From: Candidatus Falkowbacteria bacterium
Lineage (GTDB): Bacteria > Patescibacteriota > Patescibacteriia > XYB2-FULL-38-15
Direction: 5' to 3'
Length of the DNA stretch: 64,000 bases
Assembly: GCA_016214745.1 (NCBI GenBank)
Contig: JACRNW010000001.1
Coordinates: forward strand, 67,150 to 131,149
Every line of letters begins with the position of its first letter. Position 1 is the first letter of the stretch. Shown here one piece after another: positions 8,221-56,383 of this stretch. Made by a program: the position numbers and the translations under genes. The notes below the pieces were generated by a model that ran no database searches, was not told the origin of the DNA, and saw nothing but the letters and a program-made list of their open reading frames with translations.

Positions 8221-10101
8221 TTAGTACAAGTCGCTGATCGTCCTTGTGGTCGCCTCAACTGAAACCTTGCTGTAATCCGCGGTTGAACTGACGTCCGCTC
8301 CGGCTACGGCATTGCCGTAATTTGTTTTGTACACTTCCGGCACGGCGATAATTTTCTTTTCCCAATCAGCGCCGTAAAGCGAAGTCGCAACAGAGGCAGA
8401 AGTAATCCAGCGCAATTGGCCCGTGGCAGTTAAGACATAAACCTTTGGATCAAGAACGCGGAAAGGCGTATCCATACTGACAAACTGAACTAGAAAAGTG
8501 CCTGGTTTCGCGAGCACATTGCCGCCAAATGGAACCGACGTCACGATGGTGTGGCTCACAGTTTTAATGGTGGAAAAATTAGTATACCAGGAAAAATAAA
8601 TTGCCTGAGTCGGGAAAACATATCTCTTGCCGTTATCCGCGTAATAATAAACTGCTGTGCTTCCGGCCTCTTTAAACAAATCGCCGTAAACCAAGGTTGA
8701 AGTGCCTGTGAAAGTGACGGTCGTAGTCTGAGAAATTGTTACCCCGTCTGCTATGGCAGTTAGAGTCGCTGTACCAGTCGCTCCTGATCTGACTTGGAAA
8801 GTTGCCTGGCCTGAAGAATTGGTCGTTCCGTCAACGATCGTAATTGCGTCAGATGAACCGCGGTTGGACGACAAGGTTACGGTTTTACCGGAAAGAAGAG
8901 CATCAGAAGCGTCACGAACAGTTACATAAACCACTGAGTAAGAACTGCCGTCGGCCACTACTGAAGCCGGGATCGCGAGAACACTTGACCTTGAGGCGGA
9001 AACAGAACTGGAAACTACTCCGGTGAAGACAACGCTGGCCGTTTGGTCAACTGTTACGCCATCAGCCACCGCAGTAAAAGTGGCGCTGCCCGGCGTGTTG
9101 GAATGAGCTTGAAAATAAGCTTTGCCGGACGCGTCTGTCGTCCCATTAACAATTGCGATTGTGTCAGTCGCTCCACGGCTTGATGACACCGTCACGGTTT
9201 TACCGGAGAGCGCGCTGCCGGAAGAATTTTTTATTGTCGCGATAATTACCGAGACGGAAGAACCATCAGCTGTCACTGATGTTGGGGAAGCGGAAACCGT
9301 TGACAGGCTCGCGGAAACCGCGAGAGCCGGATCAGTGCCAGTTCTAAAACTCCAAGGATTTGTTATCGCGGGAGAGGCGCCGGAAGAAAGTAAATATCCG
9401 ACCAAATCTTCACCGCTCGTTGAAACAGTGATGTTCGTATCATAAGGAGGAGATGTTAATCTTGACCGAGTAACCGTTTTATCACCGTCACTCCAAGCAG
9501 GCATCAACCAACTTCCGGAACTGATGGAAAGCGAAGTCGCACTGGTCTGCATCGGTTCGGAAAAAGTCACTCTAATATATGAAAGCGTAGTGCTGACTCC
9601 AGTTGCTCCGGCCGTCGGGACGGTAGAAATAATAACCGGCGAAGCATTATCGTCAACATTTCTGAGCGGCTGGGTTGGAGCTCCTACACCCGAAACCGTA
9701 ACACTGTCCAAAGTTCCTAAATTTTTGTACTGGAGATCTGCCTGGACATACATAGTTGCCGGGTAGCCGGTTTCATTTGCGTCGCCGGAAACAAGAAGAT
9801 AAAAATAATTTGTTGTGCCGTTACAATCAAAATCTCCGCCCACACCATTTAACCTGCCCGTCGGCGCGGTCAGTCCAATACTTCCGGCGCCCACAGCCCA
9901 ATCGCCCGCTTCAAATTTGCAACTTGTTACCGCTAAATCAAAAGTCACTTTAAGACGGTCGATCGTGCCGTTGTGATCAAAATCCGAAAAAGCGACTGAC
10001 GTTAAAGTCGGCGTCCAGGCGTTTGCCGTTTGCGGTAGCATATTTACCCCGCTTACGGTCAAGACCATCGCGACCATGAGAAAAATTCTAAAGGTTTTCA
10101 T
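8221..10101 (-). CDS. secreted surface protein with two Big_1-like Ig domains and the conserved C-terminal domain (type II)
   Basis: Signal peptide. Two copies of SASPTSVTADGSS...SGKTVT(V/L)SS(S/N)RG...ATF(T/Q). The C-terminal ~170 aa (GDLFKEAGSTAVYYYADNGKRYVFPTQAIYFSWY...) is homologous to the C-termini of 21848-23530 and the N-terminal domain of 25480-29247. Confidence 0.7.
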   Translation of the reverse strand: MKTFRIFLMVAMVLTVSGVNMLPQTANAWTPTLTSVAFSDFDHNGTIDRLKVTFDLAVTSCKFEAGDWAVGAGSIGLTAPTGRLNGVGGDFDCNGTTNYFYLLVSGDANETGYPATMYVQADLQYKNLGTLDSVTVSGVGAPTQPLRNVDDNASPVIISTVPTAGATGVSTTLSYIRVTFSEPMQTSATSLSISSGSWLMPAWSDGDKTVTRSRLTSPPYDTNITVSTSGEDLVGYLLSSGASPAITNPWSFRTGTDPALAVSASLSTVSASPTSVTADGSSVSVIIATIKNSSGSALSGKTVTVSSSRGATDTIAIVNGTTDASGKAYFQAHSNTPGSATFTAVADGVTVDQTASVVFTGVVSSSVSASRSSVLAIPASVVADGSSYSVVYVTVRDASDALLSGKTVTLSSNRGSSDAITIVDGTTNSSGQATFQVRSGATGTATLTAIADGVTISQTTTVTFTGTSTLVYGDLFKEAGSTAVYYYADNGKRYVFPTQAIYFSWYTNFSTIKTVSHTIVTSVPFGGNVLAKPGTFLVQFVSMDTPFRVLDPKVYVLTATGQLRWITSASVATSLYGADWEKKIIAVPEVYKTNYGNAVAGADVSSTADYSKVSVEATTRTISDLY

Positions 10102-10277: not shown

Positions 10278-12626
10278 CTAGTAAATCTTCATCAGCATTT
10301 CTTCCGCGCCGGTGATATCCGCGCCGTTGGCGTAAGAAAGTGTGGTAGGAATTGCGAGGATATTTTCGCTCCGGAAATTATTGGCGGTGAAACCGGCCGC
10401 GGTGACTTTTCTTTTTTCCGCACCCTGGATGTAGTAGACGTCGGTTGTGCCAGAATATTGGACAAGCGCGCCGGTCGGGTGAGTGTCGGTTGAAATATCG
10501 GAACCAAAAAAATAATCGCCCCAGAAAGCAAGAGGCACATCTATGATCTTCGTCGCCCAGTTGCCGCCGTAGAGAGTTTTAATTCTTGTTTCAGTCGGAA
10601 TCCATCGGAGGAGACCGTTTGGTTCAACCGCGTAGACCTTTGGGTTGGTATCAATTTTCACGAGCACGGTGCCGGGACGAACTGTCACATTCTTGCCCAG
10701 AGGAATGGCCCGAAGTTCCTCGGCCGTGACGCTTTTTACGTTGCTCCAATCCGGATACCAACTCTTGTAAGTTTTCTCATTAGGGAAAATATGGCGCTTG
10801 TTGTCCGAGCCAAAGTAATAAACCGTAGTGCTCAAAGGACTCTTGAAGAGATCCCCCGCCACAAGACCGGCTGGATTTTCCGCCGAAGGTGGGGTCTCTG
10901 CTCCCGGTGGCGGAGGCGTGGTATAAGTAATCGTGAAATCCGCGTCGGAAATATCAGAAGCGACAAAGACGCCACTCTCGTCATGTCCTTCAACTTTAAT
11001 CTTTACCGTACTGCTCGGAACGTTAGGAACTGTCCAAGAATATGTGCCGTCATTATTTTCATTCGTGGCAATTGTATATGGGAAATTCACACCGCGATCT
11101 AGAGAATAATAGATTTTTACTTTAGTAATTGTCGTGCTCGTAGAGGACCAAGTAATGTTCTTGCTCGAGAGACCGGCCCAAGATTCGCCGCCGTTTGGAG
11201 ACAAAACCATGACAGAAGCAGGCAATCCTCCGCCGCCTCCGCCTCCTCCTCCGCCAGCCGCGACAGTGGTGAAGCTGAAGGGATTGGCAACCGGACCGGC
11301 CGCGAGATTGCCATCACCGGCAGCTGCCGAGGCAATTGTTCCAGCCAGAGTAATGGTGTATATCTGCATACCGGCAAAGGCGTCATGAGCAGCGTAGGTT
11401 AAAACTGTGTCGCCAGAAGTCCAACCCGCCGCGCCAAGAGTGAATGAAGGAAGTCTCGTGATCGCGCCAGTAACAGAGGCCTGGGTCATGGCTTCGGAGA
11501 AAGTGATGACCATGCTCGCGTCCAAAGCCACATCCGTGGCGGCACTGGCTGGAGAAGTGGTGACAATCACCGGAGCCGCACTGTCGGTAAAGGCCGGCGA
11601 GGAAGCAGAAGTAATAGTTTTGCTGGCCGCGGTGTTTGTACCATCAGTCACGGAAGTACCAGCGGTATAGGCAAGGGAGAGATCACCGACGTTTGTTTTA
11701 ACAGTGGTGGTTGTAAAACCATAATCGCACTCGTCAGCGGCGGCAGAACCGCTGTTACATTCAACTGTTCCTTCCACAATTCCGGCAAAGTTCGCGGCGG
11801 AAGTAAGTGCCCAATCAGCACTGCCATTGGCCACGGCGCTGATGTTTTCCGACCAGATTACGCCGATAAGGTCGAGTTTTCCGTCGCTACCCATAGCATC
11901 GTAAAAAGTGGTGGAGACGACAGCCGGAGCGGCGCCGTCGACATATGTAGCCTGAGATTGGTTACCAAGTGTTGTGTTAGTATTTGGAACACCGTCAGCC
12001 AAAGAAAAAAGGTTCTGGGTGGAAACTGCGAGGAGGCTGCTCGTATCGTTTGTGATTACGGCAGTCGCTTCTGTGCCGAGGTCAACGTCGGTTGAAGTAA
12101 CGGCGCCGGTGATAAGGTCAGTGGCGTTCGCGCCAAAAGCCGCACCGGTAAAGGAACCGACGTTGCCAAAAACCAGATCATTCGCCCGAAGAACTGAAGA
12201 TGCGGTAACTGTTTCCGAATAGTCAAAGATTATACGATCAATCTTGCCGTCAAGGTCAACATCTTGGTAAGTAATAGTTTTAATCACCGGGGCCGCGCCA
12301 TCAGTGAAGGCCGGAGAGGAAGCAGAAGTAATGGTCTTACTCGCCGCGGTGTTTGTACCATCAGTCACGGAAGTACCGGCAGTATAGGCAAGACTTAGAT
12401 CACCGACGTTTGTTTTAACAGTGGTGGTTGTAAAGGTGTAAGTAACGACATTCATTGGCGGCCGCGGCACCACTGTTGCAAATAACGGCGGTTTCAGTGA
12501 GAGCGGCAAAATTCGCCGCGGAAGAAATCGCCCAATCAGCGCTGCCATCGGCCACGGCGCTGATATTTTCTGACCAGACAACGGTAATACGATCAAGTTT
12601 TCCGTCGTTAGTTGCCGGCGAAGCAT
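10278..12626 (-). CDS. C-terminal portion of a split giant surface-protein gene (locus A). Module M x2, a poly-Gly linker, a PNGGE domain and the conserved C-terminal domain (type I)
   Basis: Overlaps 12415-15054 by ~210 nt in another frame. The homologous in-frame sequence exists internally (ADECDYGFTTTTVK). The true start is probably the upstream ORF. The C-terminus GDLFKSPLSTTVYYFGSDNKRHIFPNEKTYKSWY... is shared with loci B and C. Confidence 0.65.
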   Translation of the reverse strand: MLRRQLTTENLIVLPLSGQKISAPWPMAALIGRFLPRRILPLSLKPPLFATVVPRPPMNVVTYTFTTTTVKTNVGDLSLAYTAGTSVTDGTNTAASKTITSASSPAFTDGAAPVIKTITYQDVDLDGKIDRIIFDYSETVTASSVLRANDLVFGNVGSFTGAAFGANATDLITGAVTSTDVDLGTEATAVITNDTSSLLAVSTQNLFSLADGVPNTNTTLGNQSQATYVDGAAPAVVSTTFYDAMGSDGKLDLIGVIWSENISAVANGSADWALTSAANFAGIVEGTVECNSGSAAADECDYGFTTTTVKTNVGDLSLAYTAGTSVTDGTNTAASKTITSASSPAFTDSAAPVIVTTSPASAATDVALDASMVITFSEAMTQASVTGAITRLPSFTLGAAGWTSGDTVLTYAAHDAFAGMQIYTITLAGTIASAAAGDGNLAAGPVANPFSFTTVAAGGGGGGGGGGLPASVMVLSPNGGESWAGLSSKNITWSSTSTTITKVKIYYSLDRGVNFPYTIATNENNDGTYSWTVPNVPSSTVKIKVEGHDESGVFVASDISDADFTITYTTPPPPGAETPPSAENPAGLVAGDLFKSPLSTTVYYFGSDNKRHIFPNEKTYKSWYPDWSNVKSVTAEELRAIPLGKNVTVRPGTVLVKIDTNPKVYAVEPNGLLRWIPTETRIKTLYGGNWATKIIDVPLAFWGDYFFGSDISTDTHPTGALVQYSGTTDVYYIQGAEKRKVTAAGFTANNFRSENILAIPTTLSYANGADITGAEEMLMKIY
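11566..11712. repeat. diverged third copy of the ~145-bp module-M repeat (internal duplication)
   Basis: ~85 % identical to 12296-12440 by eye. Encodes the second FTTTTVKTNVGDLSLAYTAGTSVTDGTNTAASK module. Confidence 0.7.
12296..12440. repeat. ~145-bp repeat copy 1, identical to 19785-19930. The frameshift sits at its distal end
   Basis: Direct comparison of the two stretches (cagtgaaggccggagaggaagcagaagtaatggtcttactcgccgcggtgtttgtaccatcagtcacgg...gtggttgtaaaggtgtaa). Confidence 0.85.
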
Positions 12627-15054
12627 CGTAGAAAGTGGCAGTAAGGACAGCCGGAGCGGCCAAATCTATCATCGTAGCCGGACCAGTTGTGCCAGCAGGA
12701 TTTAAGGCAGCATCCACAACGCTATTGTTGGTATCATCATTGTCATAGGCAATGGTCGGAGCGGTCGCACTGTTAGTTTCGCCCGCATCGGCTGTGACGG
12801 TAATGTCTTTATCCGTACCAAGACCCGGACTATCAGTTGCAACGGAAAAGGTTGCATTAATATCGCCGCCGACAATTGTCCAATCAACCGCCGTGCTGCC
12901 CGTCATTGTTACGGACTCTGACCAGGTGACGCGAAGTGTATCTATCGCGCCATTCCCATCAATATCGCGATATGAACCACCGATCAAAATTGGCGCAGCG
13001 CCGTCGGTTGAGGCAACAGGCGCCCCATCAGTAGCTATGACATTGCCATAGAGATCTTTTAATTTTGTGTTAACCGTGAGTTGCGTATTTGGCGTCGCAC
13101 CGGTGTCCATTGATCCGCTCTCCGTAAAATTCACCCAAAAAATATTATCATTTGCCGCACCGCCGGTAACATAGGCCTCCCCAGCATAGACGGCCACATC
13201 AAGTGTTATAGTAAAATTATCGTTCAAAGCTTCATCAGTAGTAAAAATAATTCTATCAATCTGGCCGTCGCCGTCAGCATCGGCCGTTACTCTTGAAGTG
13301 ACTACCGGACCCGCTGAGTCAATAGTTTGAGTATTGGCGTTCAAAACCACTGCGTCAGTCGGACCGTCGTTAGTTGAGGACATAAACACACCCACGTCGC
13401 CAGCCGAGCTGGCCACTCCATCAGCGCCCACGTCGTTATAAACCGGAATCTGGAATTTTAATGTTCGGCCATTGGTCGGCGTAATGGTTGTCAAAATTGC
13501 CGCAAAAATTCTTTTTCCGCCAATCGGTATTGCCTGGGTTAGGCCGCTCAACCGCCATTCTTTAGAGTCTCCCGGATTCACAGTCATTGCTCCAAGGCTT
13601 GTATCAACCCCAACCCCCTGAAAAATACCATCTCCGTCGTCAGCCCAAAGAGTAACCGAAGAAATATCAGTTGAGTTGACCGCCGTGCCGGTGTTTTGAA
13701 TACCCATGCCGGCAAGCTGATCGTCTTGCCGGTCCACCACGCTGTTCGGCGCCGCACCGCCGGCCGTTCCTTCGTCTACATAAATACTCTTAGTGGCGTC
13801 AATAGTGCCGGCACCCGTAAATTTACAAACCTGAGTTCCGACGCCGCCGCCATCGCAGTCGGCTACAAAATCAGTTAAGGAATCTCCGGCCGCGACGCCG
13901 CCGCCAACATAAACAGTTACATCAGCCGAAGCGGAGTAAGTAAATTTACCAGCCACGTTTTCAATAAATAAATCATTACCCGGCGTCCAAAGAGCATTGA
14001 CTTCTTTCACCCAACCGGCTGTAGCGGCAACGTTTGTCCCGGTATCGCCATCAGTCGGGGTTCCTAAAACAACGCTCTCCGCAACAATCGCGGTCAAACG
14101 ATTATCACCGGCGCTCACTCCGTTGGCTCCTGAATTATTAATATCGTCATAAACGTATTCCGTGCCTACCGCCCAAATTCCATCACCTCCCGTAACTTTA
14201 CCCTGCGTGAGCGCCTCGATTACTGTGAGGCAATCCGCATCCGCAGGACACGCGACAACAGAACCAACCGCGCCGCCAGCTGTCGCCGTAACTCTCGTAT
14301 CGCCAGTGGTCACCGTGAGACTCGTATCGACGTCAATGTAAACATCTTCAGCGGCATCCCACTGATTTGCCGTGCCGCCAAGCGTTACCGTGGGATTCGT
14401 CAGAGCTGTAAGTGAAAGTGCAATATCACCATTTCCCCCGGCCACTGCGGCTTCGGCGCTTTTATTGGAAATATATCTTAGGTTGGCGTCAGAATCTTGC
14501 CAGACGTTGGTCGGAGTCACCACACTATCGGCTACAACATTATCCCCCCCAACAATATCATACAGGGAATCTCCTCCGCTTAAAGCAGTAGCGCCGGCTG
14601 TATTTGTTGCCGTGCCATCAGCGTCAACCAAAGTATCCGCCGCCGAAGTGTAAACGCTATCCGCATCAAGATCGCGGATGACCGCCTCTGTGTCGCCTCC
14701 TTGGAAACCGGCTGCGCCAGCATCTTTATAACCAACGCCGCTAGTTGTTCCCAAAGCCGGAATCGCGGTTAGCGTACTTCCCTGCCAATAATTAATGCCC
14801 GAATTTTGCATTAAAATATCGGCCGTGTAGGCGCCACTGTTCCAGGCGTCGGGAATAACCACATTCATAACTGCCGTCATACTAGAGGATGGACCAATAG
14901 TTACGGTCGCCGCACCGGTATTTGTGAAATTAACCTGCAACGAAGCCTCGGTGAACAGAATCGGATAAATTAAAAATCCGATCATTGATGCGGCCACCAC
15001 AAAATAGGTCGCCACAAACAAGATCGGAAAACGTTTTCGGATAAACCTTGCCAT
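12415..15054 (-). CDS. N-terminal portion of split locus A. Signal/TM anchor, Thr/Gly/Ala/Asp-rich beta-rich region with DxDxDG Ca-binding-like loops
   Basis: MARFIRKRFPILFVATYFVVAASMIGFLIYPILF signal anchor. Ends ...CNSGAAAANEC then RYLHLYNHHC*, where the paralogous sequence continues DYGFTTTTVK. So it is frameshifted relative to 10278-12626. Confidence 0.65.
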   Translation of the reverse strand: MARFIRKRFPILFVATYFVVAASMIGFLIYPILFTEASLQVNFTNTGAATVTIGPSSSMTAVMNVVIPDAWNSGAYTADILMQNSGINYWQGSTLTAIPALGTTSGVGYKDAGAAGFQGGDTEAVIRDLDADSVYTSAADTLVDADGTATNTAGATALSGGDSLYDIVGGDNVVADSVVTPTNVWQDSDANLRYISNKSAEAAVAGGNGDIALSLTALTNPTVTLGGTANQWDAAEDVYIDVDTSLTVTTGDTRVTATAGGAVGSVVACPADADCLTVIEALTQGKVTGGDGIWAVGTEYVYDDINNSGANGVSAGDNRLTAIVAESVVLGTPTDGDTGTNVAATAGWVKEVNALWTPGNDLFIENVAGKFTYSASADVTVYVGGGVAAGDSLTDFVADCDGGGVGTQVCKFTGAGTIDATKSIYVDEGTAGGAAPNSVVDRQDDQLAGMGIQNTGTAVNSTDISSVTLWADDGDGIFQGVGVDTSLGAMTVNPGDSKEWRLSGLTQAIPIGGKRIFAAILTTITPTNGRTLKFQIPVYNDVGADGVASSAGDVGVFMSSTNDGPTDAVVLNANTQTIDSAGPVVTSRVTADADGDGQIDRIIFTTDEALNDNFTITLDVAVYAGEAYVTGGAANDNIFWVNFTESGSMDTGATPNTQLTVNTKLKDLYGNVIATDGAPVASTDGAAPILIGGSYRDIDGNGAIDTLRVTWSESVTMTGSTAVDWTIVGGDINATFSVATDSPGLGTDKDITVTADAGETNSATAPTIAYDNDDTNNSVVDAALNPAGTTGPATMIDLAAPAVLTATFYDASPATNDGKLDRITVVWSENISAVADGSADWAISSAANFAALTETAVICNSGAAAANECRYLHLYNHHC

Positions 15055-15273: not shown

Positions 15274-18030
15274 CTAATAAATCCTGGACAGGGCCATCTC
15301 TTCTGCGACAAGCGGTGTGCCCAAAGTGTAAGACAGGGCCGTCGATACAGAAAGAACATTTGACAACTGGAAGTGATTTCCTGTAAAGCCGGCGGTGGAG
15401 ATTAGACGCTTTTCCGTGCCCTGGATGTAATATTTTTCAGTTGAACCAGTGTATTGAACCAAGGCGCCGGTCGGATGTTTGTCGGTTGTGACATCACTTC
15501 CAAAAGTGTAGTCAACCCAGAAGATGACTGGGACATCAATGATCTTCGTCGCCCAAGTGGAGCCGTAAAGAGTGGCGGCGCGAGCTTCGGTCGGAACCCA
15601 GCGAAGGAGTCCGCCCGGTTCAACGGCGTAGACTTTGGGATCAGTCTGGATTTTGACTAGAACTGTGCCGGCCCTGACCGTGACGTTATGGCCCAAAGAA
15701 ATGCCCTGGAGTTGAGAGGCGGAAATAGTCTTGATACCGGTGAAATCCACATACCAACTCTTGTAAGTCTTTTCATTTGGGAAGACGTGGCGTTTCCCAT
15801 CAGAACCATAGTAATAAACTGAAGAACTGAGACTGCTCTTAACCAAATCTCCGACGCTCAAAGAAACTGGAGTTTCACCAGGCGTGCCGGGAGCGGCAAA
15901 GGAGACTGAAGCGGTTTGAGTAAGAACCACGCCCGCGGCAGTAGCCGTGTAAGTTGAAGTGCCGGCTGTGCTTGATTTAACTTCAAAGGTGGCAACACCG
16001 TTCGTGCCAGTTGTGCCGGTCACGGTCGTAACCGTATCAGAAGCGCCGCGCGAAGAAGCGAGGGTCACAGTCTTGCCGGAAAGCAAATTAGAACTTGAGT
16101 CTTTGACGGTGACCGTAACAGTTGATTTGGAAGTTCCATTAGCTGTGACTGATGTTGGCGAAGCAACAACCGTGGAATTGGAAACGGAAACCGCGGAAGT
16201 AGAGTAAGTGATAGTAAAATTTGAATCGGAAATATCATTTAAGCTGCCACTCACCACTTTAACCTTTGCCGTGCTTGTGGCAACGTTCGGAACAGTCCAG
16301 GTGTATGAACCATCGTTCGTTTCGTTCGTCGCTATTGTGTTTAGAAAATTAATACCACTGTCGGTTGAATAATAGAGGCTAACCGGGTCGCTATTACTAA
16401 CAGTCGACCAGGTGATATTGTAAGATCCACCTCCGGTCAGAGTTTCACCGCCGTTTGGAGTTGTGACAGTGATAGACGCAGGCAATGATGCGGCACCGCC
16501 TCCACCGCTTGAAGCTCCAACTGTGGTAAAGTCAAAAGGATTGGCCACTGGACCAGCGCCAAGATTTCCGTCAGTCCCAGCCGCTGAAGCGATTGTTCCG
16601 GCTAAGGTGATGATATAATTCTGCATGCCGGCAAAAGCATCGTGAGCAGAGTAAGTAAGAATTGTACTTGCAGCATTCCATGATGCCGCGCCAAGAGTAA
16701 ATGCTGGAGCTCTGGCAATCGCGCCCGTGACGGAAGCTTCAGTCATAGTCTCAGAGAAAGTGATGACCAAGTTCGCATCCAGTGCCACATCTGTGACGTT
16801 GTCTACCGGAGAGGTGGTCGCGATGACCGGGGCCGCGCCATCAACTAAAGATATTGGACCAAAAGTGGGAGTGTTATTACTGCCGCCCCCATCATTAATA
16901 TTATTGGTGTTATTGGTATAAGTAATGGTTGGTTCAATACCTGCTAGCGTTTGCTTACCGGTTCTCGCGGCAGTGGCGTCAACCGTACCAGTGCCAACGT
17001 CAGTGCAAGTAATAGTGGCTAATGTTCCTGAACCCGCGCATTCGGCGAGGGCAAAGTCACCAACAAGTCCAATATCTCCGGCCGTGGAGAATGCCCAATC
17101 CGCGGCAGTAATAGCGGAAAAAGTCGTTATCTCGGAAAAGGCAAAAGCCACGCGGTCAACTTTTCCGTCAGCAGTAGAATCTGAGTAAGTCGCGGAGATC
17201 ATAAACGGCGCGGCGCCATCTATGTATAACGCTTGGGTTTGGCCGGCGAGCGTTGCGTTGGTATTTGGGATACCGTCAACCAAAGAGAACGCATTTTGAG
17301 TGGTGACCAAAAAGCCTGTGGCGTCATTTGTGTCAACAGCAGTTGCCTCAGTACCAAGGTTGACGTCAGTTGAAGTGACGGAACCAGTGATAAGATCTGT
17401 GGCATCAGCGCCAAAAGCCATGCCGGTAAAATCTCCAGCCGTAGTGGATAAATCATTGGCCGCGAGAACTGAAGCGGCAACAACGGTTTCTGTATAAGCA
17501 AATGTCATGCGGTCAATTTTTCCGTCGGCATCAGCGTCTTTGTAAGTAATTGTTTTAATGAATGGTTTTGAAGCGTCAGTAGCCGTGAAGGTTGACGTGC
17601 CGTCATTTGCATCGGCGACTACACTCGCTAATGTACCTTGATTTGTATAAGTAATTTGCGGATCCGTGACTCCACCAGTAGTCTGTGGCGTAGTAATTAC
17701 GCCTACATCAATGTACTCGTCAGTCGTACAAGTAGCGGAATTGGTAAAACCAACAAAGAGGGTTACACCTATCGTTCCGGTCTCAGCTACAGTCCAATCG
17801 CCAGGTTCGTAAGTGCAGGCTGTAACGTCCGTAAAGGTAAGTCTAATATTATCAACTGTTCCATTAGCATCAGCGTCTATGTATGTGGTAGTGAGAGGTG
17901 CCAGGGCAGCCGCTTTTGCCAAATGAACCGGCATGCTGTACCAAACGCCGAGAGAAATGCTTATGATCATGAGCATTACCACCGACCATGGCAATACTTT
18001 GAAAAATCCTTTTTTGATTCTTTCTGCCAT
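15274..18030 (-). CDS. intact giant surface protein (locus B) with the conserved C-terminal domain (type I)
   Basis: MAERIKKGFFKVLPWSVVMLMIISISLG signal anchor. Ca-binding-like DADADGKIDR modules, SPVDNVTDVALDA...ITFSETMT, a poly-Gly linker, a PNGGE domain, a Big-like domain and GDLVKSSLSSSVYYYGSDGKRHVFPNEKTYKSWY...RIY. It lacks module M. Confidence 0.75.
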   Translation of the reverse strand: MAERIKKGFFKVLPWSVVMLMIISISLGVWYSMPVHLAKAAALAPLTTTYIDADANGTVDNIRLTFTDVTACTYEPGDWTVAETGTIGVTLFVGFTNSATCTTDEYIDVGVITTPQTTGGVTDPQITYTNQGTLASVVADANDGTSTFTATDASKPFIKTITYKDADADGKIDRMTFAYTETVVAASVLAANDLSTTAGDFTGMAFGADATDLITGSVTSTDVNLGTEATAVDTNDATGFLVTTQNAFSLVDGIPNTNATLAGQTQALYIDGAAPFMISATYSDSTADGKVDRVAFAFSEITTFSAITAADWAFSTAGDIGLVGDFALAECAGSGTLATITCTDVGTGTVDATAARTGKQTLAGIEPTITYTNNTNNINDGGGSNNTPTFGPISLVDGAAPVIATTSPVDNVTDVALDANLVITFSETMTEASVTGAIARAPAFTLGAASWNAASTILTYSAHDAFAGMQNYIITLAGTIASAAGTDGNLGAGPVANPFDFTTVGASSGGGGAASLPASITVTTPNGGETLTGGGSYNITWSTVSNSDPVSLYYSTDSGINFLNTIATNETNDGSYTWTVPNVATSTAKVKVVSGSLNDISDSNFTITYSTSAVSVSNSTVVASPTSVTANGTSKSTVTVTVKDSSSNLLSGKTVTLASSRGASDTVTTVTGTTGTNGVATFEVKSSTAGTSTYTATAAGVVLTQTASVSFAAPGTPGETPVSLSVGDLVKSSLSSSVYYYGSDGKRHVFPNEKTYKSWYVDFTGIKTISASQLQGISLGHNVTVRAGTVLVKIQTDPKVYAVEPGGLLRWVPTEARAATLYGSTWATKIIDVPVIFWVDYTFGSDVTTDKHPTGALVQYTGSTEKYYIQGTEKRLISTAGFTGNHFQLSNVLSVSTALSYTLGTPLVAEEMALSRIY

Positions 18031-18195: not shown

Positions 18196-19857
18196 CTAAT
18201 AAATCCTGGTCAACGCTGTCTCCTCGGCAGTGATTGGCGTGCCAAGGGTGTAGGATATAGTAGTCGGAGCAGAGAGAACATTGGACAACAGAAACTTGTT
18301 GGCCGTGAAACCAGCAGTGGAGATCAAGCGTCTTTCCGCGCCCTGGATGTAATACTTGTCCGTTGTGCCAGTGTATTGGATCAGAGCACCGGTCGGATGT
18401 TGATCGGTCGTGATGTCGCTTCCGAAAGTGTAATCAACCCAGAAGATGACTGGGACGTCAATAATCTTTGTCGCCCAAGCAGAGCCGTAAAGAGTCGTGG
18501 CGCGAGCTTCGGTCGGAACCCAGCGGAGAAGTCCGCCTGGTTCAACGGCGTAGACTTTGGGATCAGTCTGAATCTTCACAAGCACGGTGCCGGGACGAAC
18601 TTTAACGTTCGCGCCCAAAGCAATACCTTGCAATTGCGAAGCTGTGACGGACTTGATACCGCTAAAGTCAACATACCATGACTTGTAGGTCTTTTCATTT
18701 GGGAAGACATGGCGTTTATTGTCGGAACCGTAATAGTAGACTGAAGTAGAGAGCGGGCTCTTAATTAAGTCACCGACAGAAAGCGCAGTTGGCGTTTCAC
18801 CAGCGCCAGGCGTAGTTGGCGCGCCCACGGCCGTAAAGACAACGGAGACAGTGCTCGTAAGAACCGTGCCGGCGGCAGTAACCGTGTAGGTTGAAGTACC
18901 GGCCGTGCTTGAGTAGACGTTGAAGGTGGCTTTGCCATCCGCGCCGGTTGTGCCGGTTACGGTTGTAATCGTGTCAGATGAACCACGACTTGAAGCAAGA
19001 GTCACGACTTTGCCCGAGAGCGGCACGCTCGCGGCGTCCTTCACGGTCACGGTGATAATTGAGAAACTCGTGCCATTAGCCACGACTGAAGTTGGGGAAG
19101 CTACGATGGTGGAGTTCGCGACTGAAACCGTGGGTGTTGTGTAGGTAATAGCGAAATTGGAATCTGATATATCATTCAATGAGCCGGCCACTGCTTTTAC
19201 TTTGACAGTGCTGGAAGTGATATTCGGCACGGTCCAAGCGTAAGAGCCATCATTCGTTTCATTCGTAGCAATGGTGTATGGGAAATTAATACCGGAATCA
19301 AGCGAATAGTAGAGATTCACGGTGTCGGTCACACCCGTAGCAGACCAAGTGATGTTGTGGCTTGAACCACCAGCCCAAGATTCGCCGCCGTTTGGAGCGG
19401 TGACTGTCATTGAAGCCGGCAGCCCTCCTCCGCCTCCACCGCCGCCGCTAGAAGCCGCGACGGTCGTAAAGGTGTAAGGATCAGCTACTATGGCTGAATT
19501 ATCAAGAGTGCTGTCTCCTGCGGCCGCCGAATTAATTGATCCTTGGACCAAATCAATTGTATAGATTTGCAGACCAGCCCAAGCATCATGCGAAGCGTAA
19601 GTGACCACCGTGTTGCCAGAAGACCAAACAGCTGAACCGAGGGCAAAAGTAGGAGATCTGCCGAGAGTAGTTGTTGTGATATCAGTCGTAGTCATCGCTT
19701 CCGAGAAAGTGATAGAGAAGCTGGCGTCCAAGGCAACGCTTGTCGCGCCGTCGGCCGGAGAGGTGGAAGCAACAACCGGATTTGCACCGTCAGTGAAGGC
19801 CGGAGAGGAAGCAGAAGTAATGGTCTTACTCGCCGCGGTGTTTGTACCATCAGTCAC
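18196..19857 (-). CDS. C-terminal portion of split locus C. Module M x1, a poly-Gly linker, a PNGGE domain, a Big-like domain and the conserved C-terminal domain (type I)
   Basis: The track starts it at a GTG inside module M (VTDGTNTAASK...). The frame stays open upstream to CYTFTTTTVKTNVGDL inside the 145-bp repeat. No signal peptide, so the N-terminus is supplied by 19884-21434. Confidence 0.65.
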   Translation of the reverse strand: MTDGTNTAASKTITSASSPAFTDGANPVVASTSPADGATSVALDASFSITFSEAMTTTDITTTTLGRSPTFALGSAVWSSGNTVVTYASHDAWAGLQIYTIDLVQGSINSAAAGDSTLDNSAIVADPYTFTTVAASSGGGGGGGGLPASMTVTAPNGGESWAGGSSHNITWSATGVTDTVNLYYSLDSGINFPYTIATNETNDGSYAWTVPNITSSTVKVKAVAGSLNDISDSNFAITYTTPTVSVANSTIVASPTSVVANGTSFSIITVTVKDAASVPLSGKVVTLASSRGSSDTITTVTGTTGADGKATFNVYSSTAGTSTYTVTAAGTVLTSTVSVVFTAVGAPTTPGAGETPTALSVGDLIKSPLSTSVYYYGSDNKRHVFPNEKTYKSWYVDFSGIKSVTASQLQGIALGANVKVRPGTVLVKIQTDPKVYAVEPGGLLRWVPTEARATTLYGSAWATKIIDVPVIFWVDYTFGSDITTDQHPTGALIQYTGTTDKYYIQGAERRLISTAGFTANKFLLSNVLSAPTTISYTLGTPITAEETALTRIY

Positions 19858-19930
19858 GGAAGTACCGGCAGTATAGGCAAGACTTAGATCACCGACGTTT
19901 GTTTTAACAGTGGTGGTTGTAAAGGTGTAA
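19785..19930. repeat. ~145-bp repeat copy 2, identical to 12296-12440. Spans the junction of the two locus-C ORFs
   Basis: Direct comparison. Divergence from copy 1 begins exactly at gttac(ttac)acc. Copy 1 has two TTAC units and copy 2 has one. Confidence 0.85.
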
Positions 19931-21434
19931 CAGCCACGGTTTCAGCATCAGCCATTTCGTTGTTGGCCGGAGAAGTGTCGTCAATCTGACCGGCTGCGGC
20001 AACCGTGTAAGTCGGAGTCACTGTGATGGCGGTGTTAGATGTGGCAGAAACAGTGATGTTTAAATTTAAAATGGCGCTAGCGGTGCCCGCGTAATTAGCG
20101 TTGTCAATAGTAGCCGTGCCGGATGAAGCGACCAGTGTAATGGCCGGGAAGCCATCACCAGCGTTGCCATCAGTCACGTCAGAACTTTCGCTAAAGGTCA
20201 AGACAAGGCGGTCAACCGTACCGTCAGAATTGTTGTCTCCAGTAAGAGCGGAAATGAAAGCCGGAGCGGCGCCATCAGCGCCAACCACGGTCTCGCCATT
20301 GGCCATTTCGTTCACCGTGTCAGAGATGCTGCCCGCGCCAGCTGTGGCATAGGTCGGATCAATCGTGATCGCGGTGTTGCCAGTGGCTGAAACGGAAATA
20401 GTGTAGGTTAAAGTGGTAGTTCCGACCGCGCCATAGACACCGGCGGTGACAGTGGCCGTGCCAGAAGAAGCAACCAAAGTGATATCATCGTCAGTGCCGC
20501 CATCAGTGACAGTCACTGGTTCTGAGAAGGTCATGACTAAGCGGTCAACCGTACCGTCAGAATTGTTGTCTCCAGTAAGAGCGGAAATGAAAGCCGGAGC
20601 GGCGCCGTCGGTGCCAGCTACAGACGCTGTGTTGGCCATTTCGTTGTTGGCCGGGGCGACATCATCAATCTGACCGGCTGGAGCAGTGGTATAGGTTGGA
20701 GTCACGGTTAAGGCCGTATTAGCTGTGACAGAAGTCGTGATGTTTAAAGTCAGGGTAGTCGTAGCGGCGGCGGCGTAGTCAGCGTTGTCAATCGTCGCGG
20801 TGCCAGATGAGGCGGCTAAAGTGATGGCCGGGAAACCGTCGCCAGCGTTGCCGTCAGTCACGTCAGAGCTTTCACTGAAGGTCAAGACAAGGCGATCAAC
20901 TGTGCCGTCGGAGTTAGCGTCGCCGGTAAGAGCGGAAATGAAAGCGGGTTTAGCGCCATCGGCACCAACCACGGTTGCAAGGTTGGCCATTTCAGTGCTC
21001 GTCGCCGTATCTGCAATCAGGCCAGCTGGAGCAGTAGCGTAGGTTGGGTCAATAGTAATGGCAGTGTTGCCTGTTGCGCTCACGGTAATATTTAATGTTA
21101 AAGTTGGAACATTTAGCGCTCCGTAATCAGCGTTGTCAATCGTCGCGGTGCCGGATGAGGCGGCTAAAGTGATAGCCGGGAAACCGTCGCCAGCGTTGCC
21201 GTCAGTGATGTCAACGTTTTCCGAAAAAGTGATTACAAGCCGGTCAACAGTTCCATCCGCGTTATTGTCGACCGTGACAGCTGAACTCATTGTGGGCTGG
21301 GCCGCCAAAGCTGGCAAAACTCCTGGATTTTGAGGGGTTGGCATGGTAAAGGTTGCTACCAAGCCAATCACTAAAAATATTACCACCGACCATGGCAATA
21401 CTTTGAAAAACCCTTTTTTGATCTTTTCTGCCAT
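19884..21434 (-). CDS. N-terminal portion of split locus C. Signal anchor plus four ~114-aa tandem repeats
   Basis: MAEKIKKGFFKVLPWSVVIFLVIGLV is near-identical to the locus B N-terminus. Repeats of PAFISALTGD(A/N)NSDGTVDRLV(L/M)TFSE...GNAGDGFPAITL(A/V)ASSGTATIDNA. Ends ...ETVAVTPLQPPLLKQTSVI*, which is a frameshifted read of the module-M repeat. Confidence 0.65.
   Translation of the reverse strand: MAEKIKKGFFKVLPWSVVIFLVIGLVATFTMPTPQNPGVLPALAAQPTMSSAVTVDNNADGTVDRLVITFSENVDITDGNAGDGFPAITLAASSGTATIDNADYGALNVPTLTLNITVSATGNTAITIDPTYATAPAGLIADTATSTEMANLATVVGADGAKPAFISALTGDANSDGTVDRLVLTFSESSDVTDGNAGDGFPAITLAASSGTATIDNADYAAAATTTLTLNITTSVTANTALTVTPTYTTAPAGQIDDVAPANNEMANTASVAGTDGAAPAFISALTGDNNSDGTVDRLVMTFSEPVTVTDGGTDDDITLVASSGTATVTAGVYGAVGTTTLTYTISVSATGNTAITIDPTYATAGAGSISDTVNEMANGETVVGADGAAPAFISALTGDNNSDGTVDRLVLTFSESSDVTDGNAGDGFPAITLVASSGTATIDNANYAGTASAILNLNITVSATSNTAITVTPTYTVAAAGQIDDTSPANNEMADAETVAVTPLQPPLLKQTSVI
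19990..21340. repeat. four tandem ~342-bp coding repeats
   Basis: The spurious plus-strand ORFs at 20101, 20446, 20785 and 21133 all start MSIVAVPDEA.../MTVAVPEEA..., which reveals the period. The protein repeats were aligned by eye. Confidence 0.65.
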
Positions 21435-21847: not shown

Positions 21848-23530
21848 CTAAAATCCTTTATCCTGGTCAATTGTCGCTATCGCCTGCTCTGCCGCTAAAT
21901 TGTAGTCCACGGCGAGATTGATGTCGGCGCCGTAATTGTAGTTCGTAGCAAACACTTCCGGCACGGCAACAATTTTCTTTTCCCAATCCGTACCGAAGAT
22001 CGTGCTCGCCGCATCGGCGGTTTTAACCCAGTGCAAAATTCCGCCGCGGCTTACGGCGTAAACTTTTGGATCCATCACGCGCCAGGGCGTATCCATACTG
22101 ACAACCTGGACCAACTTTCCGGGCCGCACCGTGACGTTGCCGCTTGTCGGCACAGCGGCAAGATCCGCGTCGGAGATTGTTTTAATGGAAGAAAAACCGG
22201 TGAACCATGAGGAATAAATCGCGGCGGTCGGAAAAATGTATCGTCTTCCATCGGAGGCGTAATAGTAAACGGCTGTGCTCGCAGTTCCTTTAATTAAGTC
22301 TCCAGCATGAAAAGAAACGGCGGTAAAAGTTAAAGTCGGTTTTTGGTCTAAAGTCACGACGCCGACTTTCGCGGTCAAAGTTGAAACGCCCGCCGCGGTT
22401 CCCGTGACTTCAAAAGTGGCCAGGCCGTCCGCGCCGGTTAATTCTTTGGTGGCTCTAATATTGTCAGTTGAACGATCGGAAGTTAAGGAGACAGTTTTTC
22501 CTGAAAGCGCGTTGCCGGCTAAATTTTTAACTAATACCGTGACAAATGCTCTTGTCGCGCCGTCGGCCGGAAGAATGGCAGGCGTGACAGAAACCGTGGA
22601 AGCGGCGGCCGAGGCCGAGACTGTCGCGGTTTGATCAACCGTTACAATAGTCCCCTGCCCGATGGTTTCGGCGTTGCCGAGCCAGTCGGCGCCTTGCGTT
22701 TTGATCGTGTAAGTTCCATCCGTAATATTTGTCCAGTTATATTCCCAGTCTGAATAATTGGTGCCGGTGTTTGTAACATCAACCCAAGAACCAGCCGAAC
22801 TGCCGGAACTTATCAAAATTTGGAGTGAAGCCAGAGTTGAACCGCCCTGATCGCGCGCCACGCCAATAATTTTGAAACTTGAAGTGGTGATAATCGTTCC
22901 TGCCGAGGGAGATGTAATCACGGTTTTGGGCGCGCTCGTATCATAGTTTGAAACCCAAATAGTTTGAATATATGGATTTATAATTCCATCCGCGACACCG
23001 GTTGCTCCGGCTAAAAACAAACCCGAATCACCGAGGTCAAACCGACCAACCGTTCCACCGTCAATAAGGAGAGGCACTTTCATTTGGACCGATTTATTCG
23101 CCACGATCGCGCCTTTTGTTCCGGTTTCAATGCTCACAAAAATCCGAAGACCGGAAGCAGGCACGGCTTTTTGCAATCCTGATAAATACCAATAACCGCC
23201 GGTTTCGTAGCGAGTCGCCTCGCCCAATTTTTCATCAACCGCCATGCCCTGAAAACCGGATGCTCCGGCGTCTGTCCAAACGACAACTTTTCCAAAATCC
23301 CAACCCCGGGCCGTGCCGTCATTTTGCAAAGTCAGGGCGTTTAAAACATCAGCCGACCCGTCGGCTCGCGCGACGGTAAAATCCATAACCAGTTTGTCAA
23401 ACTCCGAAGGATAAAAAATCGCGACCGGCGCGCCGGTGTTTGTGACGGTGATTGTTTCAGCGGCGGAGACGGGGAGGAGAGCAAAAACGAATAAAATAAT
23501 TAAAAAAATGGAAATTCTTTTTGACACCAT
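21848..23530 (-). CDS. secreted surface protein with a Big_1-like domain and the conserved C-terminal domain (type II)
   Basis: MVSKRISIFLIILFVFALLPVSA signal peptide. ...SGKTVSLTSDRSTDNIRATKELTGADGLATFEVTG (Big_1). C-terminus GDLIKGTASTAVYYYASDGRRYIFPTAAIYSSWF... Confidence 0.7.
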   Translation of the reverse strand: MVSKRISIFLIILFVFALLPVSAAETITVTNTGAPVAIFYPSEFDKLVMDFTVARADGSADVLNALTLQNDGTARGWDFGKVVVWTDAGASGFQGMAVDEKLGEATRYETGGYWYLSGLQKAVPASGLRIFVSIETGTKGAIVANKSVQMKVPLLIDGGTVGRFDLGDSGLFLAGATGVADGIINPYIQTIWVSNYDTSAPKTVITSPSAGTIITTSSFKIIGVARDQGGSTLASLQILISSGSSAGSWVDVTNTGTNYSDWEYNWTNITDGTYTIKTQGADWLGNAETIGQGTIVTVDQTATVSASAAASTVSVTPAILPADGATRAFVTVLVKNLAGNALSGKTVSLTSDRSTDNIRATKELTGADGLATFEVTGTAAGVSTLTAKVGVVTLDQKPTLTFTAVSFHAGDLIKGTASTAVYYYASDGRRYIFPTAAIYSSWFTGFSSIKTISDADLAAVPTSGNVTVRPGKLVQVVSMDTPWRVMDPKVYAVSRGGILHWVKTADAASTIFGTDWEKKIVAVPEVFATNYNYGADINLAVDYNLAAEQAIATIDQDKGF

Positions 23531-24658: not shown

Positions 24659-24692
24659 AGGTTTTTGGATTTAGTTTATTTTTTAATATTTT

Positions 24693-24750
24693 GGGAGTCC
24701 TGCCTTTAGGCAGAGACTGGAGTTTGTCTCGCCCTAAAGGGCGGTCTCCG
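24693..24750. repeat. REP-like hairpin pair (types A and B) flanking the RAYT gene
   Basis: GGAGTCCTGCCTTTAGGCAGAGAC and GTCTCGCCCTAAAGGGCGGTCTCC. Each folds as a GC stem with a TTTA/TAAA loop. Type B is roughly the reverse complement of type A. Confidence 0.6.
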
Positions 24751-25285
24751 GTTCGTTAGTTATAAAATCAACAATCGGATATAATTCAAAACACGAGTCA
24801 AACCACTCTTCTCCTTTTATTTTACTCCAACTTTTCGCGCTTGAAAAGGGATAACCAAAAACGCCGACCAAATTTTTACAAAACCCATGTTTTATTGGAT
24901 TTTGGTGAATGTAATTAAAATGTTTCCAAAAATCCGCTTCGTCGCGGATTGAATGGTCAAAATATTGATACCAGATTTTACGGCCTTTCTCATTTTCCGA
25001 TTTATTTAATTCAAAAGAGCTTTTGCCGTTAATGAAGTTAATAAATTTAGATAAATTTTCTCCGTTAAAAATTTTAAACAACAAATGGAAATGATTATCT
25101 AACAACACCCAGGCGTATAAATGAATCTCAAATTTTCGGAGTCCTGCCTTTAGGCAGAGACAAAATAATTTCTTTTTAGAATCCATGTCAAAATATGGTT
25201 TCCGGTCCACAGTTCTCGCGGTAATAGAATAAATTGTGTTGTCGAAAAAAATATGTGGCGGATGGTGATGTTGCGAGTGAAGCAT
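24734..25285 (-). CDS. REP-associated tyrosine transposase (RAYT; IS200/IS605 Y1-transposase-like)
   Basis: IHLYAWVLLDNHFHLLF is the HuH motif. 183 aa, flanked by REP hairpins. Confidence 0.68.
   Translation of the reverse strand: MLHSQHHHPPHIFFDNTIYSITARTVDRKPYFDMDSKKKLFCLCLKAGLRKFEIHLYAWVLLDNHFHLLFKIFNGENLSKFINFINGKSSFELNKSENEKGRKIWYQYFDHSIRDEADFWKHFNYIHQNPIKHGFCKNLVGVFGYPFSSAKSWSKIKGEEWFDSCFELYPIVDFITNEPETAL
25139..25162. repeat. REP type-A copy lying inside the RAYT coding sequence (in frame, encodes LFCLCLKAGL)
   Basis: The 24-nt ggagtcctgcctttaggcagagac is identical to 24694-24717. Confidence 0.6.
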
Positions 25286-25293
25286 ATGGTTTT

Positions 25294-25401
25294 GGTCTCG
25301 CCCTAAAGGGCGGACTCCGGTGAAATTGAGAGACGGACTCCGGCTTGGAGTCCTGGCTTTAGCCAGAGACCATTGTCGTCTCGCCCTAAAGGGCGGCCTC
25401 C
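25294..25401. repeat. REP-like hairpin cluster (B, A-variant, B) on the other side of the RAYT gene
   Basis: ggtctcgccctaaagggcggactcc ... ggagtcctggctttagccagagac ... gtctcgccctaaagggcggcctcc, plus the GGACTCCggcttGGAGTCC palindrome. Confidence 0.6.
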
Positions 25402-25479
25402 AATTTTATTTTACCACAAAATCAAAGCGACCCGGTCGAATGACCGGGCCGCTTTTTTCTATATCAACGAATTCGGAGA

Positions 25480-28400: not shown

Positions 28401-29247
28401 TCAGAGAAAAGGTTGCTTGATGGACTGAACCTAAGCTCTGTGAAGTGCCGCGTTGCACGCCGTCAACAAAAAGTTTGATGGCGCTCAAGTTCGCGTCAAT
28501 ACCAAGTCCTGATCTCGTCACCTTGAGGCCGGTGATTGTTGCATCAGCCGCGCCCGCGGTGAAATTAACTTTCGTGAAGTAAACGTTAGCCGCGCCTTTC
28601 GGTACTGAAGCGGCTGCCGGAGTGTCTGAAGCTAAAGCAATCGATAAGCCGCCCGTTCCGGAAACGCCGGTCAAACCTTTGCACTCATTGATTGAGGCAA
28701 CGGCCTGTTGAGTGGCTAAAGTGTAGTCTCCAGCAGCGTTGATTTCCGCGCCAATTGTGTAATTGGTGAGGAGCGCTTCTGGAATAGCGACAATCTGTGA
28801 TTCCCAAGTCGCGCCAAAGATAGCGACAGCGACGTCCGCGGTTTTAACCCAGCGGAGAACATTGTCTTTTTCAACGGCGTAAACTTTAGGATCCATTACC
28901 ATCCACGGAGAATCCATGCTGACGACCTGGGCTAATTTGCCCGGGCGAACAGTCACGTTACCGCCGAAAGGAATGGCAATTAAATCTGCGTCAGTCATAG
29001 TGGTGACGCCACTGAAAGTGGAGCCATACCATGAGGAATACGCAGCCTGATACGGGAATACGTATCTCTTCGCGTCCGCACCGTAGTAATAAACGGCGGT
29101 GCCAGTGCCCTTAATCAAATCGCCAGAAGTCACGGCGTTAGCAGTCAATGGCAAAGCCAAAGCGCCAACTCCGATTGACCAGACGATTGTTGTAAAGACA
29201 ACGGCGAAAGTAAATACTTTCTTCCCAGTCTTAATCAAATCGTTCAT
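25480..29247 (-). CDS. giant (~1255 aa) secreted surface protein. The conserved domain (type II) is N-terminal here, followed by a long Thr/Gly/Ala-rich beta-rich region
   Basis: Likely start at MNDLIKTGKKVFTFAVVFTTIVWSIGVGALA (signal anchor), then SGDLIKGTGTAVYYYGADAKRYVFPYQAAYSSWY... Confidence 0.68.
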   Translation of the reverse strand: MNDLIKTGKKVFTFAVVFTTIVWSIGVGALALPLTANAVTSGDLIKGTGTAVYYYGADAKRYVFPYQAAYSSWYGSTFSGVTTMTDADLIAIPFGGNVTVRPGKLAQVVSMDSPWMVMDPKVYAVEKDNVLRWVKTADVAVAIFGATWESQIVAIPEALLTNYTIGAEINAAGDYTLATQQAVASINECKGLTGVSGTGGLSIALASDTPAAASVPKGAANVYFTKVNFTAGAADATITGLKVTRSGLGIDANLSAIKLFVDGVQRGTSQSLGSVHQATFSLTSNPIVVSAGTTKAVVLGADIAVATAFDQHVLGIALASDITTTATVSGTFPVNGNTMSLVNTSIGSATISGGPLNPGASSGDVGIDPAAVGFRFSQIRIAAGSTEPLVIEQITAIKNGTAANTDVKNIELFNDTAGTSLGTVTGLDSNSKAVFSSLNLTVAKGAYVELSIKADMAGGSGRTIGFDVHDGTSFAGMIKGGTFNFGIAPTFTNTTAFCDTGVTDYTCQRQTINQGYLTVSKSASAPATGKIPVGGTNVSLMAFDFTVAGEPINVTQTIVTYTTADGTGTAGTGIRTNVTNFTLVKADGTILAGPKDGDTTHTSVGAETLTVTDGYTLPIGTTVVYAKANLSTNMTAGNTIVVSMAVTAITGKGANSGKTTYTTSTGAVVPPATAITGNTMTLQGPVLAITTAATPVVGSMVINAQDQIFAYLDLDASAGGENIRVSSVKVTDTCVAAAGPVTCTLYTGLNNLELWGDPDNTDATVVNERLATSNSTATNGLTTTFTFQTPIVVSKTAISRLTLKADVTTAYDADTDGTADTHAFNVAAGGDVTAIGATTGNTASKSVTGAGQAQTLRASGTLKVEKAADMPSAAQLVSSSMANEVAKYKFTTQYEPVDVTTIGLYCGNNAQAGTACTLGNIAKLYVYADGALVGNTSGYTLDANGRASVVLDSGTLVIPKDSYKTITLKADLPDKTQVTTSSGAVIQIGIECAGAAGTTQNKDNTWADAAGVNGDYWIIATGQSSGATIDKNTINSVGTTAVSQNFGSNGFSAHKGILTVSLNASSPSGTQTAGSNKEVLRLNLTATGDDVTIRELELKNGGTATITGTDTLTVKSDDLGTTYATLTGANCNTYSASANVCLESAATISIGIFGCTVGAADGTGDLCAGAWTTDNNLQVAAGTTKVIRIFGDTTGALSTKTYQMTVGPDGTNMTTVYGVTYRDSSGTDVGDRTGSASSTYPATKNLPLSGGSLSY

Positions 29248-56311: not shown

Positions 56312-56316
56312 GCCCT

Positions 56317-56368: not shown

Positions 56369-56383
56369 TTTTATAAAAAAACC

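Follow-up and report, generated by a model that had tools for sequence, protein, structure and literature searches.

Genes that appear to be broken at the edge of a repeat can be compared with several described systems, one of them technical and the others biological. MEGAHIT v1.2.9 uses a k-list that ends at 141, and the COBRA paper states that where repeats break MEGAHIT contigs, the contig ends share sequences as long as maxK; it also warns that IDBA_UD scaffolding can introduce errors (PMC10914622; for the warning, its references 26 and 33). Among the biological systems, gene conversion acts in tandem families of immunoglobulin (Ig)-like surface proteins such as the Big_1/Big_5/invasin-like adhesins. 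Simple-sequence contingency loci are known from Haemophilus and Neisseria, and silent-cassette variation from pilE/pilS, vlsE and MgPa. Here we examine a stretch of 64,000 nucleotides (nt) from a Candidatus Falkowbacteria bacterium (assembly GCA_016214745.1, contig JACRNW010000001.1, positions 67,150 to 131,149), which we call the window. In it two paralogous surface-protein genes, loci A and C, are each split at a copy of the same 141-base-pair (bp) repeat. We put a probability of roughly 0.88 on the reading that these frame breaks are an artefact of scaffold building, made at a 141-base repeat during short-read metagenome assembly. The frameshifts, and a symmetry between them that had looked meaningful, are almost certainly not biology, and the true locus A is very probably an intact gene of 1590 amino acids (aa).

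The features that matter for this argument are these, with a slash marking the edge of the repeat here and throughout.

10278-15054, minus strand: locus A, which becomes one 1590-aa surface-protein gene when the duplicated TTAC is taken out
12415-15054 and 10278-12626, minus strand: the open reading frames (ORFs) of locus A as called, 879 aa with an N-terminal signal/transmembrane (TM) segment, and 782 aa
18196-21434, minus strand: locus C, a single surface-protein gene of about 1079-1080 aa after a +1/+4 repair
19884-21434 and 18196-19857, minus strand: the ORFs of locus C as called, 516 aa with a signal, and 553 aa
15274-18030, minus strand: locus B, an intact paralogue of 918 aa between the R1 and R2 copies
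12301-12441, minus strand: R1, copy 1 of the exact 141-bp repeat, in locus A (longest common substring and whole-window exact-repeat scan)
19790-19930, minus strand: R2, copy 2 of the exact 141-bp repeat, in locus C (same two methods)
11576-11716, minus strand: R3, a diverged third copy, in frame inside locus A, 88 % identical in nucleotides to R1
12442-12445, minus strand: the extra TTAC (GTAA on the plus strand) of the locus A frameshift; the orthologue in L001 reads GAATGCCGATACACCTTC without it
19931-19943, minus strand: the abrupt junction ...GAAACCGTGGCTG/R2 of locus C, at least 1 nt short of an open frame

Locus A runs from the signal/TM segment through an N-terminal region, a domain M-R1, a body like that of locus B with M-R3, Big_5 and Ig-like domains to a conserved C-terminal domain. 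R1 encodes the C-terminal half (YTFTTTTVK...SSPAFTD) of the Ig-like M-R domain. Locus C consists of a signal, four tandem domains of about 115 aa, R2, Big_5, Big_1/Invasin_D3 and the C-terminal domain. An earlier sequence-only reading had described the division of each locus into the two ORFs listed above, and this description is correct. It had also placed an identical repeat of about 145 bp at 12296-12440 and 19785-19930; the copies are indeed 100 % identical, but the repeat is exactly 141 bp long and lies at the positions we list. Its further observations on the frames are borne out. In both loci the frame changes exactly at the gene-sense 5' edge of the repeat, and the downstream frames stay open back across it; in A the open stretch reaches 12665, in C no farther than 19941.

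The junction in locus A reads, in gene sense, …GAATGTCGTTAC/TTACACCTTT…, or CGTTAC/TTACACC. The extra TTAC is the last 4 bases of the 141-mer repeated verbatim (…GGTGTAA/GTAA… on the plus strand). With one TTAC deleted the locus becomes a 1590-aa ORF that reads …NECRYTFTTTTVK… and is colinear with the diverged internal copy, ECDYGFTTTTVK at about 11576-11716 (…ADECDYGFTTTTVK…). That copy, R3, is the in-frame homologous version that the sequence-only reading had pointed to. It matches R1 at 121 of 138 nt and differs at 17; 12 of the 13 codons that differ are synonymous changes and one is non-synonymous, and therefore the R peptide is under purifying selection. The identity of R1 and R2 is 100 %, against 88 % for R1 and R3, although the length of the R1-R2 tract is here fixed by k. 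Because the other copies are only 88 % identical, 141 consecutive matches between R1 and R2 are far beyond chance. A 32-mer from the core of the repeat had no match in the GTDB genome contigs or the JGI metagenome contigs.

The junction in locus C reads …ACCGTGGCTG/TTACACCTTT…, or GTGGCTG/TTACACC. The sequence 5' of R2 is the end of a domain of the type found in the upstream part of C (…EMADAETVA), and it shows no homology to M, the half-domain found before R in A and in every relative. Adding a TTAC to C gives a 1080-aa ORF. Adding one G gives …ETVAGYTFTTTTVK… (…EMADAETVAGYTFTTTTVK…) and restores a Gly present in the other three domain copies and in the homologues P0001 and P0010. This single-G repair is an attractive reconstruction on sequence grounds but one among several, and the true form of C is not certain. 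If the repair is true, C is an intact gene with a 45-codon in-frame patch identical to the R of locus A.

What convinces us that the breaks come from the assembly is that they occur twice in unrelated genes. In a scan of the whole 64-kb window for maximal exact repeats, two stand out at exactly 141 bp each, in unrelated genes; the next longest is 66 bp. The second 141-bp repeat is in a gene for a Cys-rich repeat protein.

41872-44537, minus strand: Cys-rich repeat gene with the Cu-binding_MopE motif PF11617, called as three overlapping ORFs (43002-44537, 42362-43513 and 41872-42726)
42435-42575, minus strand: copy 1 of the second 141-bp repeat (70 % GC), frame break at the high-coordinate edge
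43156-43296, minus strand: copy 2 of the second 141-bp repeat, frame break at the high-coordinate edge (…EVCDPLLAE/…)

Copy 1 reads …CSCVDGTTQP/… where the unit consensus needs …QP-CG-TDMGAC…, which leaves it 5 nt short. With 2 or 5 nt inserted at each of the broken edges, the gene becomes one ORF of about 890 aa. The pattern is the same for both repeats: in 4 of 4 copies the high-coordinate edge breaks the frame and the low-coordinate edge is seamless, in frame and homologous. No further split gene was found among the other genes of the window that were examined. This is in keeping with an error tied to the repeats rather than a general sequence error.

The length of the repeats equals the default largest k-mer (k_max) of MEGAHIT. 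He et al. 2021 deposited several MAGs (metagenome-assembled genomes) under the name 'Candidatus Falkowbacteria bacterium', at 4-26x coverage in BioProject PRJNA640378, and their pipeline ran MEGAHIT with default settings followed by IDBA-UD scaffolding (PMC7906910). From the NCBI naming, the style of the accession and the k = 141 signature we infer that this MAG most likely comes from that study; the baseline GC of the window, about 40-43 %, suits several of the Falkowbacteria MAGs in the BioProject. As a small control set we looked at four unscaffolded MEGAHIT contigs with 'k141_' names (L011, L012, L014 and L015). Their longest exact repeat measures 98 bp, and none reaches 141. A unitig cannot pass through one node twice, so two copies of a 141-mer in one scaffold mean that pieces were joined after MEGAHIT had finished.

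The joining could have gone wrong in the following way. Loci that share at least 141 identical bases would share one 141-mer node, and MEGAHIT contigs would stop there, each keeping the 141-mer. A node N with two entries and two exits would leave three contigs, which in plus-strand order would be the downstream part of A followed by N, then N followed by the upstream part of A, locus B, the downstream part of C and N again, and finally N followed by the upstream part of C. The scaffolder would order these by read pairs and merge neighbours, and we infer that it does not align the ends but cuts away an overlap of estimated length. The left contig would keep its full 141-mer and the right contig would be trimmed by 141 ± a few bases. 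In locus A, 137 bases would have been removed rather than 141, which would leave the last 4 bases twice (GTAA/GTAA, or TTAC TTAC in gene sense). In locus C at least 142 would have been removed, so that at least 1 nt would be lost. In the gene with the MopE motif 143 or 146 would have been removed at one copy, and the other copy would need 2 nt (mod 3) added. Every 141-mer copy would then be marked by a small indel on the high-coordinate side, which would make the genes look split. Only one path uses all three contigs, and since the window shows that very order, its gene order is correct. A simpler rule that always trims exactly 141 bases would take the same remainder away at both copies. It fits the gene with the MopE motif, where both copies need +2 (mod 3), but fails for A against C, and we rejected it.

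The likeness to the published accounts of repeat-node contig breaks and scaffolding errors in de Bruijn assemblies (PMC10914622) is close. The length is the k_max of MEGAHIT, and a direct-repeat node is flanked by three contigs. The errors likewise fall on one side of each copy, and the same scaffold holds a second, independent instance. The published accounts differ in that they cover end overlaps and generic scaffolding errors. The trimming step is our own proposal; we did not find a description of the specific signature, in which every repeat of length k_max is bordered by an indel of a few bases. The misassembly across the repeat that the sequence-only reading listed as one of three possibilities is thus the one we favour, given the repeat length, the second 141-bp repeat with its one-sided breaks, and the in-frame orthologues described below.

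Several points weigh against this conclusion. The link from this MAG to the MEGAHIT and IDBA-UD study is only probable, as no listed accession matched it. A de Bruijn contig cannot invent junction k-mers, which means the errors must come from scaffolding, a step that is invisible in sequence alone; that the junction k-mers would be missing from the read data is a prediction. The account needs an IDBA scaffolder that skips bases by a distance derived from insert size, as its code probably does, rather than aligning ends. Loci A and C need different corrections (mod 3), which requires a noisy trimming estimate. Finally, the architecture of C is odd even when repaired, with the half-domain R standing without M after a complete domain, so its junction may be partly real. 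We think that this context of R in C is probably real.

The relatives show what the junction should look like. The homologues are 'invasin domain 3-containing' proteins of Patescibacteria, and the syntenic or related loci that we compared are L001 (JGI), L002/L007 (OZ246416.1), L003, L004 and L006. The closest is L004, with about 89 % nucleotide identity in the neighbouring housekeeping genes and a surface-protein gene of 2160 aa. The junction NEC[RD]Y[TN]FTTTTVK is in frame in the proteins P0001-P0005 and P0013 and in the loci L001-L004 and L006. All five of these loci have the M half-domain in frame before R (…SENISAV…DWA.SSAANFA…C.....NEC[RD]Y[TN]FTTTTVKT…), and in L006 three tandem M-R units follow immediately after a domain of the kind that ends the upstream part of C. 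Because M always stands in frame before R in the relatives, M and R together make one Ig-like domain of about 118 aa, of which R is the C-terminal half. L001 reads GAATGCCGATAC-ACCTTC where locus A reads CGTTAC-TTAC-ACCTTT. It has no second TTAC, so the insertion is peculiar to this assembly. A 291-aa query spanning the junction was uninformative, returning three weak matches only and missing the window's own proteins.

One protein had looked like a real counterpart of the split in C. P0004, which has no signal peptide, was considered as a truly split orthologue of C and rejected: a run of N lies within a single frame of 1113 codons, which makes it an assembly gap. The run is at L002 9780-10026 (OZ246416.1, an 886-kb 'chromosome' record) in the tandem-domain region of the C-position orthologue, and because of it P0004 was called at only 891 aa. 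The same repetitive gene family defeats other assemblies too.

Exact tracts shared between or within paralogous surface-protein genes are found in other assemblies as well, with lengths of 101, 124, 139, 176, 199 and 204 bp. None is 141 bp long, and the genes that carry them are in frame.

L002, 9557/13066: exact tract of 204 bp
L002, 11120/19321: exact tract of 176 bp
L003, 12697/15685: exact tract of 139 bp
L004, 6579/6900: exact tract of 199 bp
L001, 723/1470: exact tract of 101 bp

The tracts of 101-204 bp mean that gene conversion is a real background process in this family and point to it being common; the family is also strongly mosaic between species. Probably A and C do share at least 141 identical nt, as a result of gene conversion between the paralogues, which presumes that the bubble merging of MEGAHIT did not homogenise near-identical copies. 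The sequence-only reading had proposed a recent gene conversion. We accept this as a plausible origin of the shared tract, but it leaves the frame breaks unexplained.

It could still be argued that the assembly is correct as it stands. A recent gene conversion or template switch between A and C would then have copied a tract of 141 nt, with out-of-frame scars where the homology ends, and the two genes would be very young pseudogenes or would make truncated proteins. The tracts of the relatives and the mosaic family speak for this, as does the junction of C, where microhomology (GTTAC) is paired with a 3' crossover in homologous sequence (ACTGA). Removing 134 nt from C gives a canonical domain boundary, ETVAVTDGANP, like that of P0010, and the gene halves are otherwise free of stops, as fits a very recent event. 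However, the tract would be exactly 141 nt only by coincidence, and the second, unrelated 141-bp repeat with the same one-sided breaks would go unexplained. Two independent frameshifts at the same edge would be needed, one of them a TTAC duplication without a substrate for slippage, while the orthologues are all in frame. The described conversion systems in tandem Ig-like families resemble this locus in their tandem paralogues and shuffled N-terminal modules and in the 100-200 bp tracts of the relatives, and the R peptide here is under strong purifying selection (12 synonymous against 1 non-synonymous). They differ in that conversion within homologous sequence creates no indels at tract ends in two unrelated genes. 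We consider it very unlikely that both the sequence and the scars are real.

A model in which 134 nt were inserted into C was also tried. All readable C-position genes (L001-L004) have M-R before Big_5, and the second 141-mer locus makes a biological model unnecessary, so the insertion model was dropped. Another reading is that part of the picture is real: locus C carries a 45-codon half-domain, R, that was copied from A into a non-homologous site and joined through microhomology at GTTAC and homology at ACTGA, and one or both genes may be frameshifted in part of the population. This we regard as unlikely as a whole. If it were true, template switching would have newly produced the half-domain in C, within a surface-protein family of the candidate phyla radiation (CPR) that reshuffles Ig-like half-domains.

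The symmetry of the two junctions was the main argument for something more elaborate. According to the sequence-only reading, each copy would be in frame with the TTAC count of the other. Removing a unit does repair A and adding one does repair C, but this is arithmetic only. Any change of -4, -1, +2 or +5 restores A, and any change of -5, -2, +1 or +4 restores C. The symmetry is not meaningful because two out-of-frame junctions have opposite needs half the time, and the number of TTAC units is irrelevant in C because the sequence upstream of R2 is not homologous to that in A.

The elaborate scenario is a programmed on/off or cassette switch, in which N-terminal cassettes are parked out of frame and brought back by TTAC number or by recombination between repeats. 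The setting would suit it, since surface-exposed proteins with Ig-like repeats in a tandem paralogue cluster are a kind of gene that is often phase-variable, and by arithmetic either copy is in frame with the other's count. As in the contingency loci of Haemophilus and Neisseria, a 4-nt unit sets the frame near the 5' part of a surface-protein gene. Known tetranucleotide contingency loci, however, need long tracts. Here there are one or two units, the second a duplicate of the repeat's terminal bases; this is no tract, and the relatives have none in its place. As in silent-cassette systems, related surface-protein segments in one locus share short identical stretches. The difference is that none of the paralogues lacks a start codon, a signal peptide or an intergenic region of its own, which leaves no silent or promoterless partial cassette and no single site of expression. 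If R1 recombined with R2 or with R3, the broken 5' junction would stay in place and neither frame would be restored, because the breaks lie upstream of the shared tract. The relatives have one R per locus and intact genes, and the same defect appears in the unrelated gene with the MopE motif. The cassette switching or antigenic variation suggested by the sequence-only reading is therefore rejected as highly improbable. A diversity-generating retroelement was considered and rejected too: R1 and R2 are identical, and the differences between R1 and R3 are third-position synonymous changes of all kinds and not adenine-specific. No reverse transcriptase was found among the ORFs scanned in the window.

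Programmed ribosomal frameshifting, +1 in A and -1 in C, on the shared ACACCTTTACAACC could in principle give full-length proteins from both genes. The CTT_T in A resembles the CUU U slip site of the prfB type, and both shifts would take place in the same short sequence. Yet one and the same sequence would have to cause a forward shift in one gene and a backward shift in the other. In C no X_XXY_YYZ heptamer lies in the zero frame, the A-site in A holds neither a stop nor a rare codon, and the orthologues are single-frame at the junction, so the shift site is not conserved. We find this scarcely credible.

We return to the scaffolding error as the explanation of the breaks. The feature is almost certainly a scaffolding artefact on top of an ordinary recombining family of paralogous surface proteins. 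A and C are best regarded as members of a mosaic Ig-like family of surface proteins that are intact, or at least have not been demonstrated to be broken. The consequence for biology is small, and the value of the case is as a warning about data quality. Scaffolds made with MEGAHIT and IDBA-UD can hold indels of a few bases at the edge of every repeat of k_max length. Such indels lead to false split genes and pseudogenes, preferentially in repetitive surface-protein genes, and these are the genes mined for phase variation, pseudogenisation and host interaction in CPR bacteria. The signature to look for in quality control is an exact repeat within a scaffold of exactly 141 bp (k_max) together with a frame change at one edge.

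The cluster to which A, B and C belong has Big_5, Big_1/Invasin_D3 and Kre9-like Ig domains as its Pfam content. In the database the window, part of a contig of 145,105 bp, carries locus tags HZB93_* and proteins MBI5071351-84, and the upstream parts of A and C are deposited as separate hypothetical proteins. The exact protein look-up gave no record for the locus B protein. All the paralogues, and many homologues in Patescibacteria, share a conserved C-terminal region of about 150 aa that has no Pfam match and carries the motif GDL[IF]KS..S..VYYYG.D.KRH.FPNEKTYKSWY…VRPG…K….DPKVYAV. It may be a domain for cell-surface anchoring or wall binding. Its carriers are these.

8221-10101: gene with the C-terminal region
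10278-12626: downstream ORF of locus A
15274-18030: locus B
18196-19857: downstream ORF of locus C
21848-23530: gene with the C-terminal region
25480-29289: gene assigned by the DNA repeat D6/D8

The neighbourhood of the cluster is concerned with the cell envelope and includes an S8 peptidase with FG-GAP repeats, glycosyltransferases and an O-antigen ligase-like protein. Short palindromic repeats of two families, GGTCTCGCCCTAAAGGGCGG… and GGAGTCCTGCCTTTAGGCAGAGAC, with three copies each, border a gene for an IS200-like Y1 transposase (24734-25285, region 24688-25404). The whole resembles an IS200/IS605 element or one of the REP/RAYT type, and it is not at the equivalent position in L002 and L003.

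Two GC-rich islands, at about 41700-44700 and 52000-59500, have 55-62 % GC against about 40-43 % in the adjacent housekeeping genes. They encode secreted Cys-rich proteins (one of them TSP_3-like), a Ser/Thr kinase with tetratricopeptide repeats (54593-56311), a coiled-coil protein and a collagen-repeat protein (57860-58984), and they are interspersed with typical low-GC CPR genes such as those for the transfer-messenger RNA (46086-46468) and an AI-2E transporter. The islands could have been acquired horizontally, or contigs of another organism could have been joined into a chimeric scaffold.

A trio of genes stands upstream of the surface-protein cluster. An ECF (extracytoplasmic function)-type sigma factor (30673-31254, minus strand) is followed by a DUF5667 protein (29407-30669) and then by a 1269-aa protein without a Pfam match (25480-29289). 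The same arrangement is found in L002 and L003, and the trio may be a dedicated regulator of the cluster.

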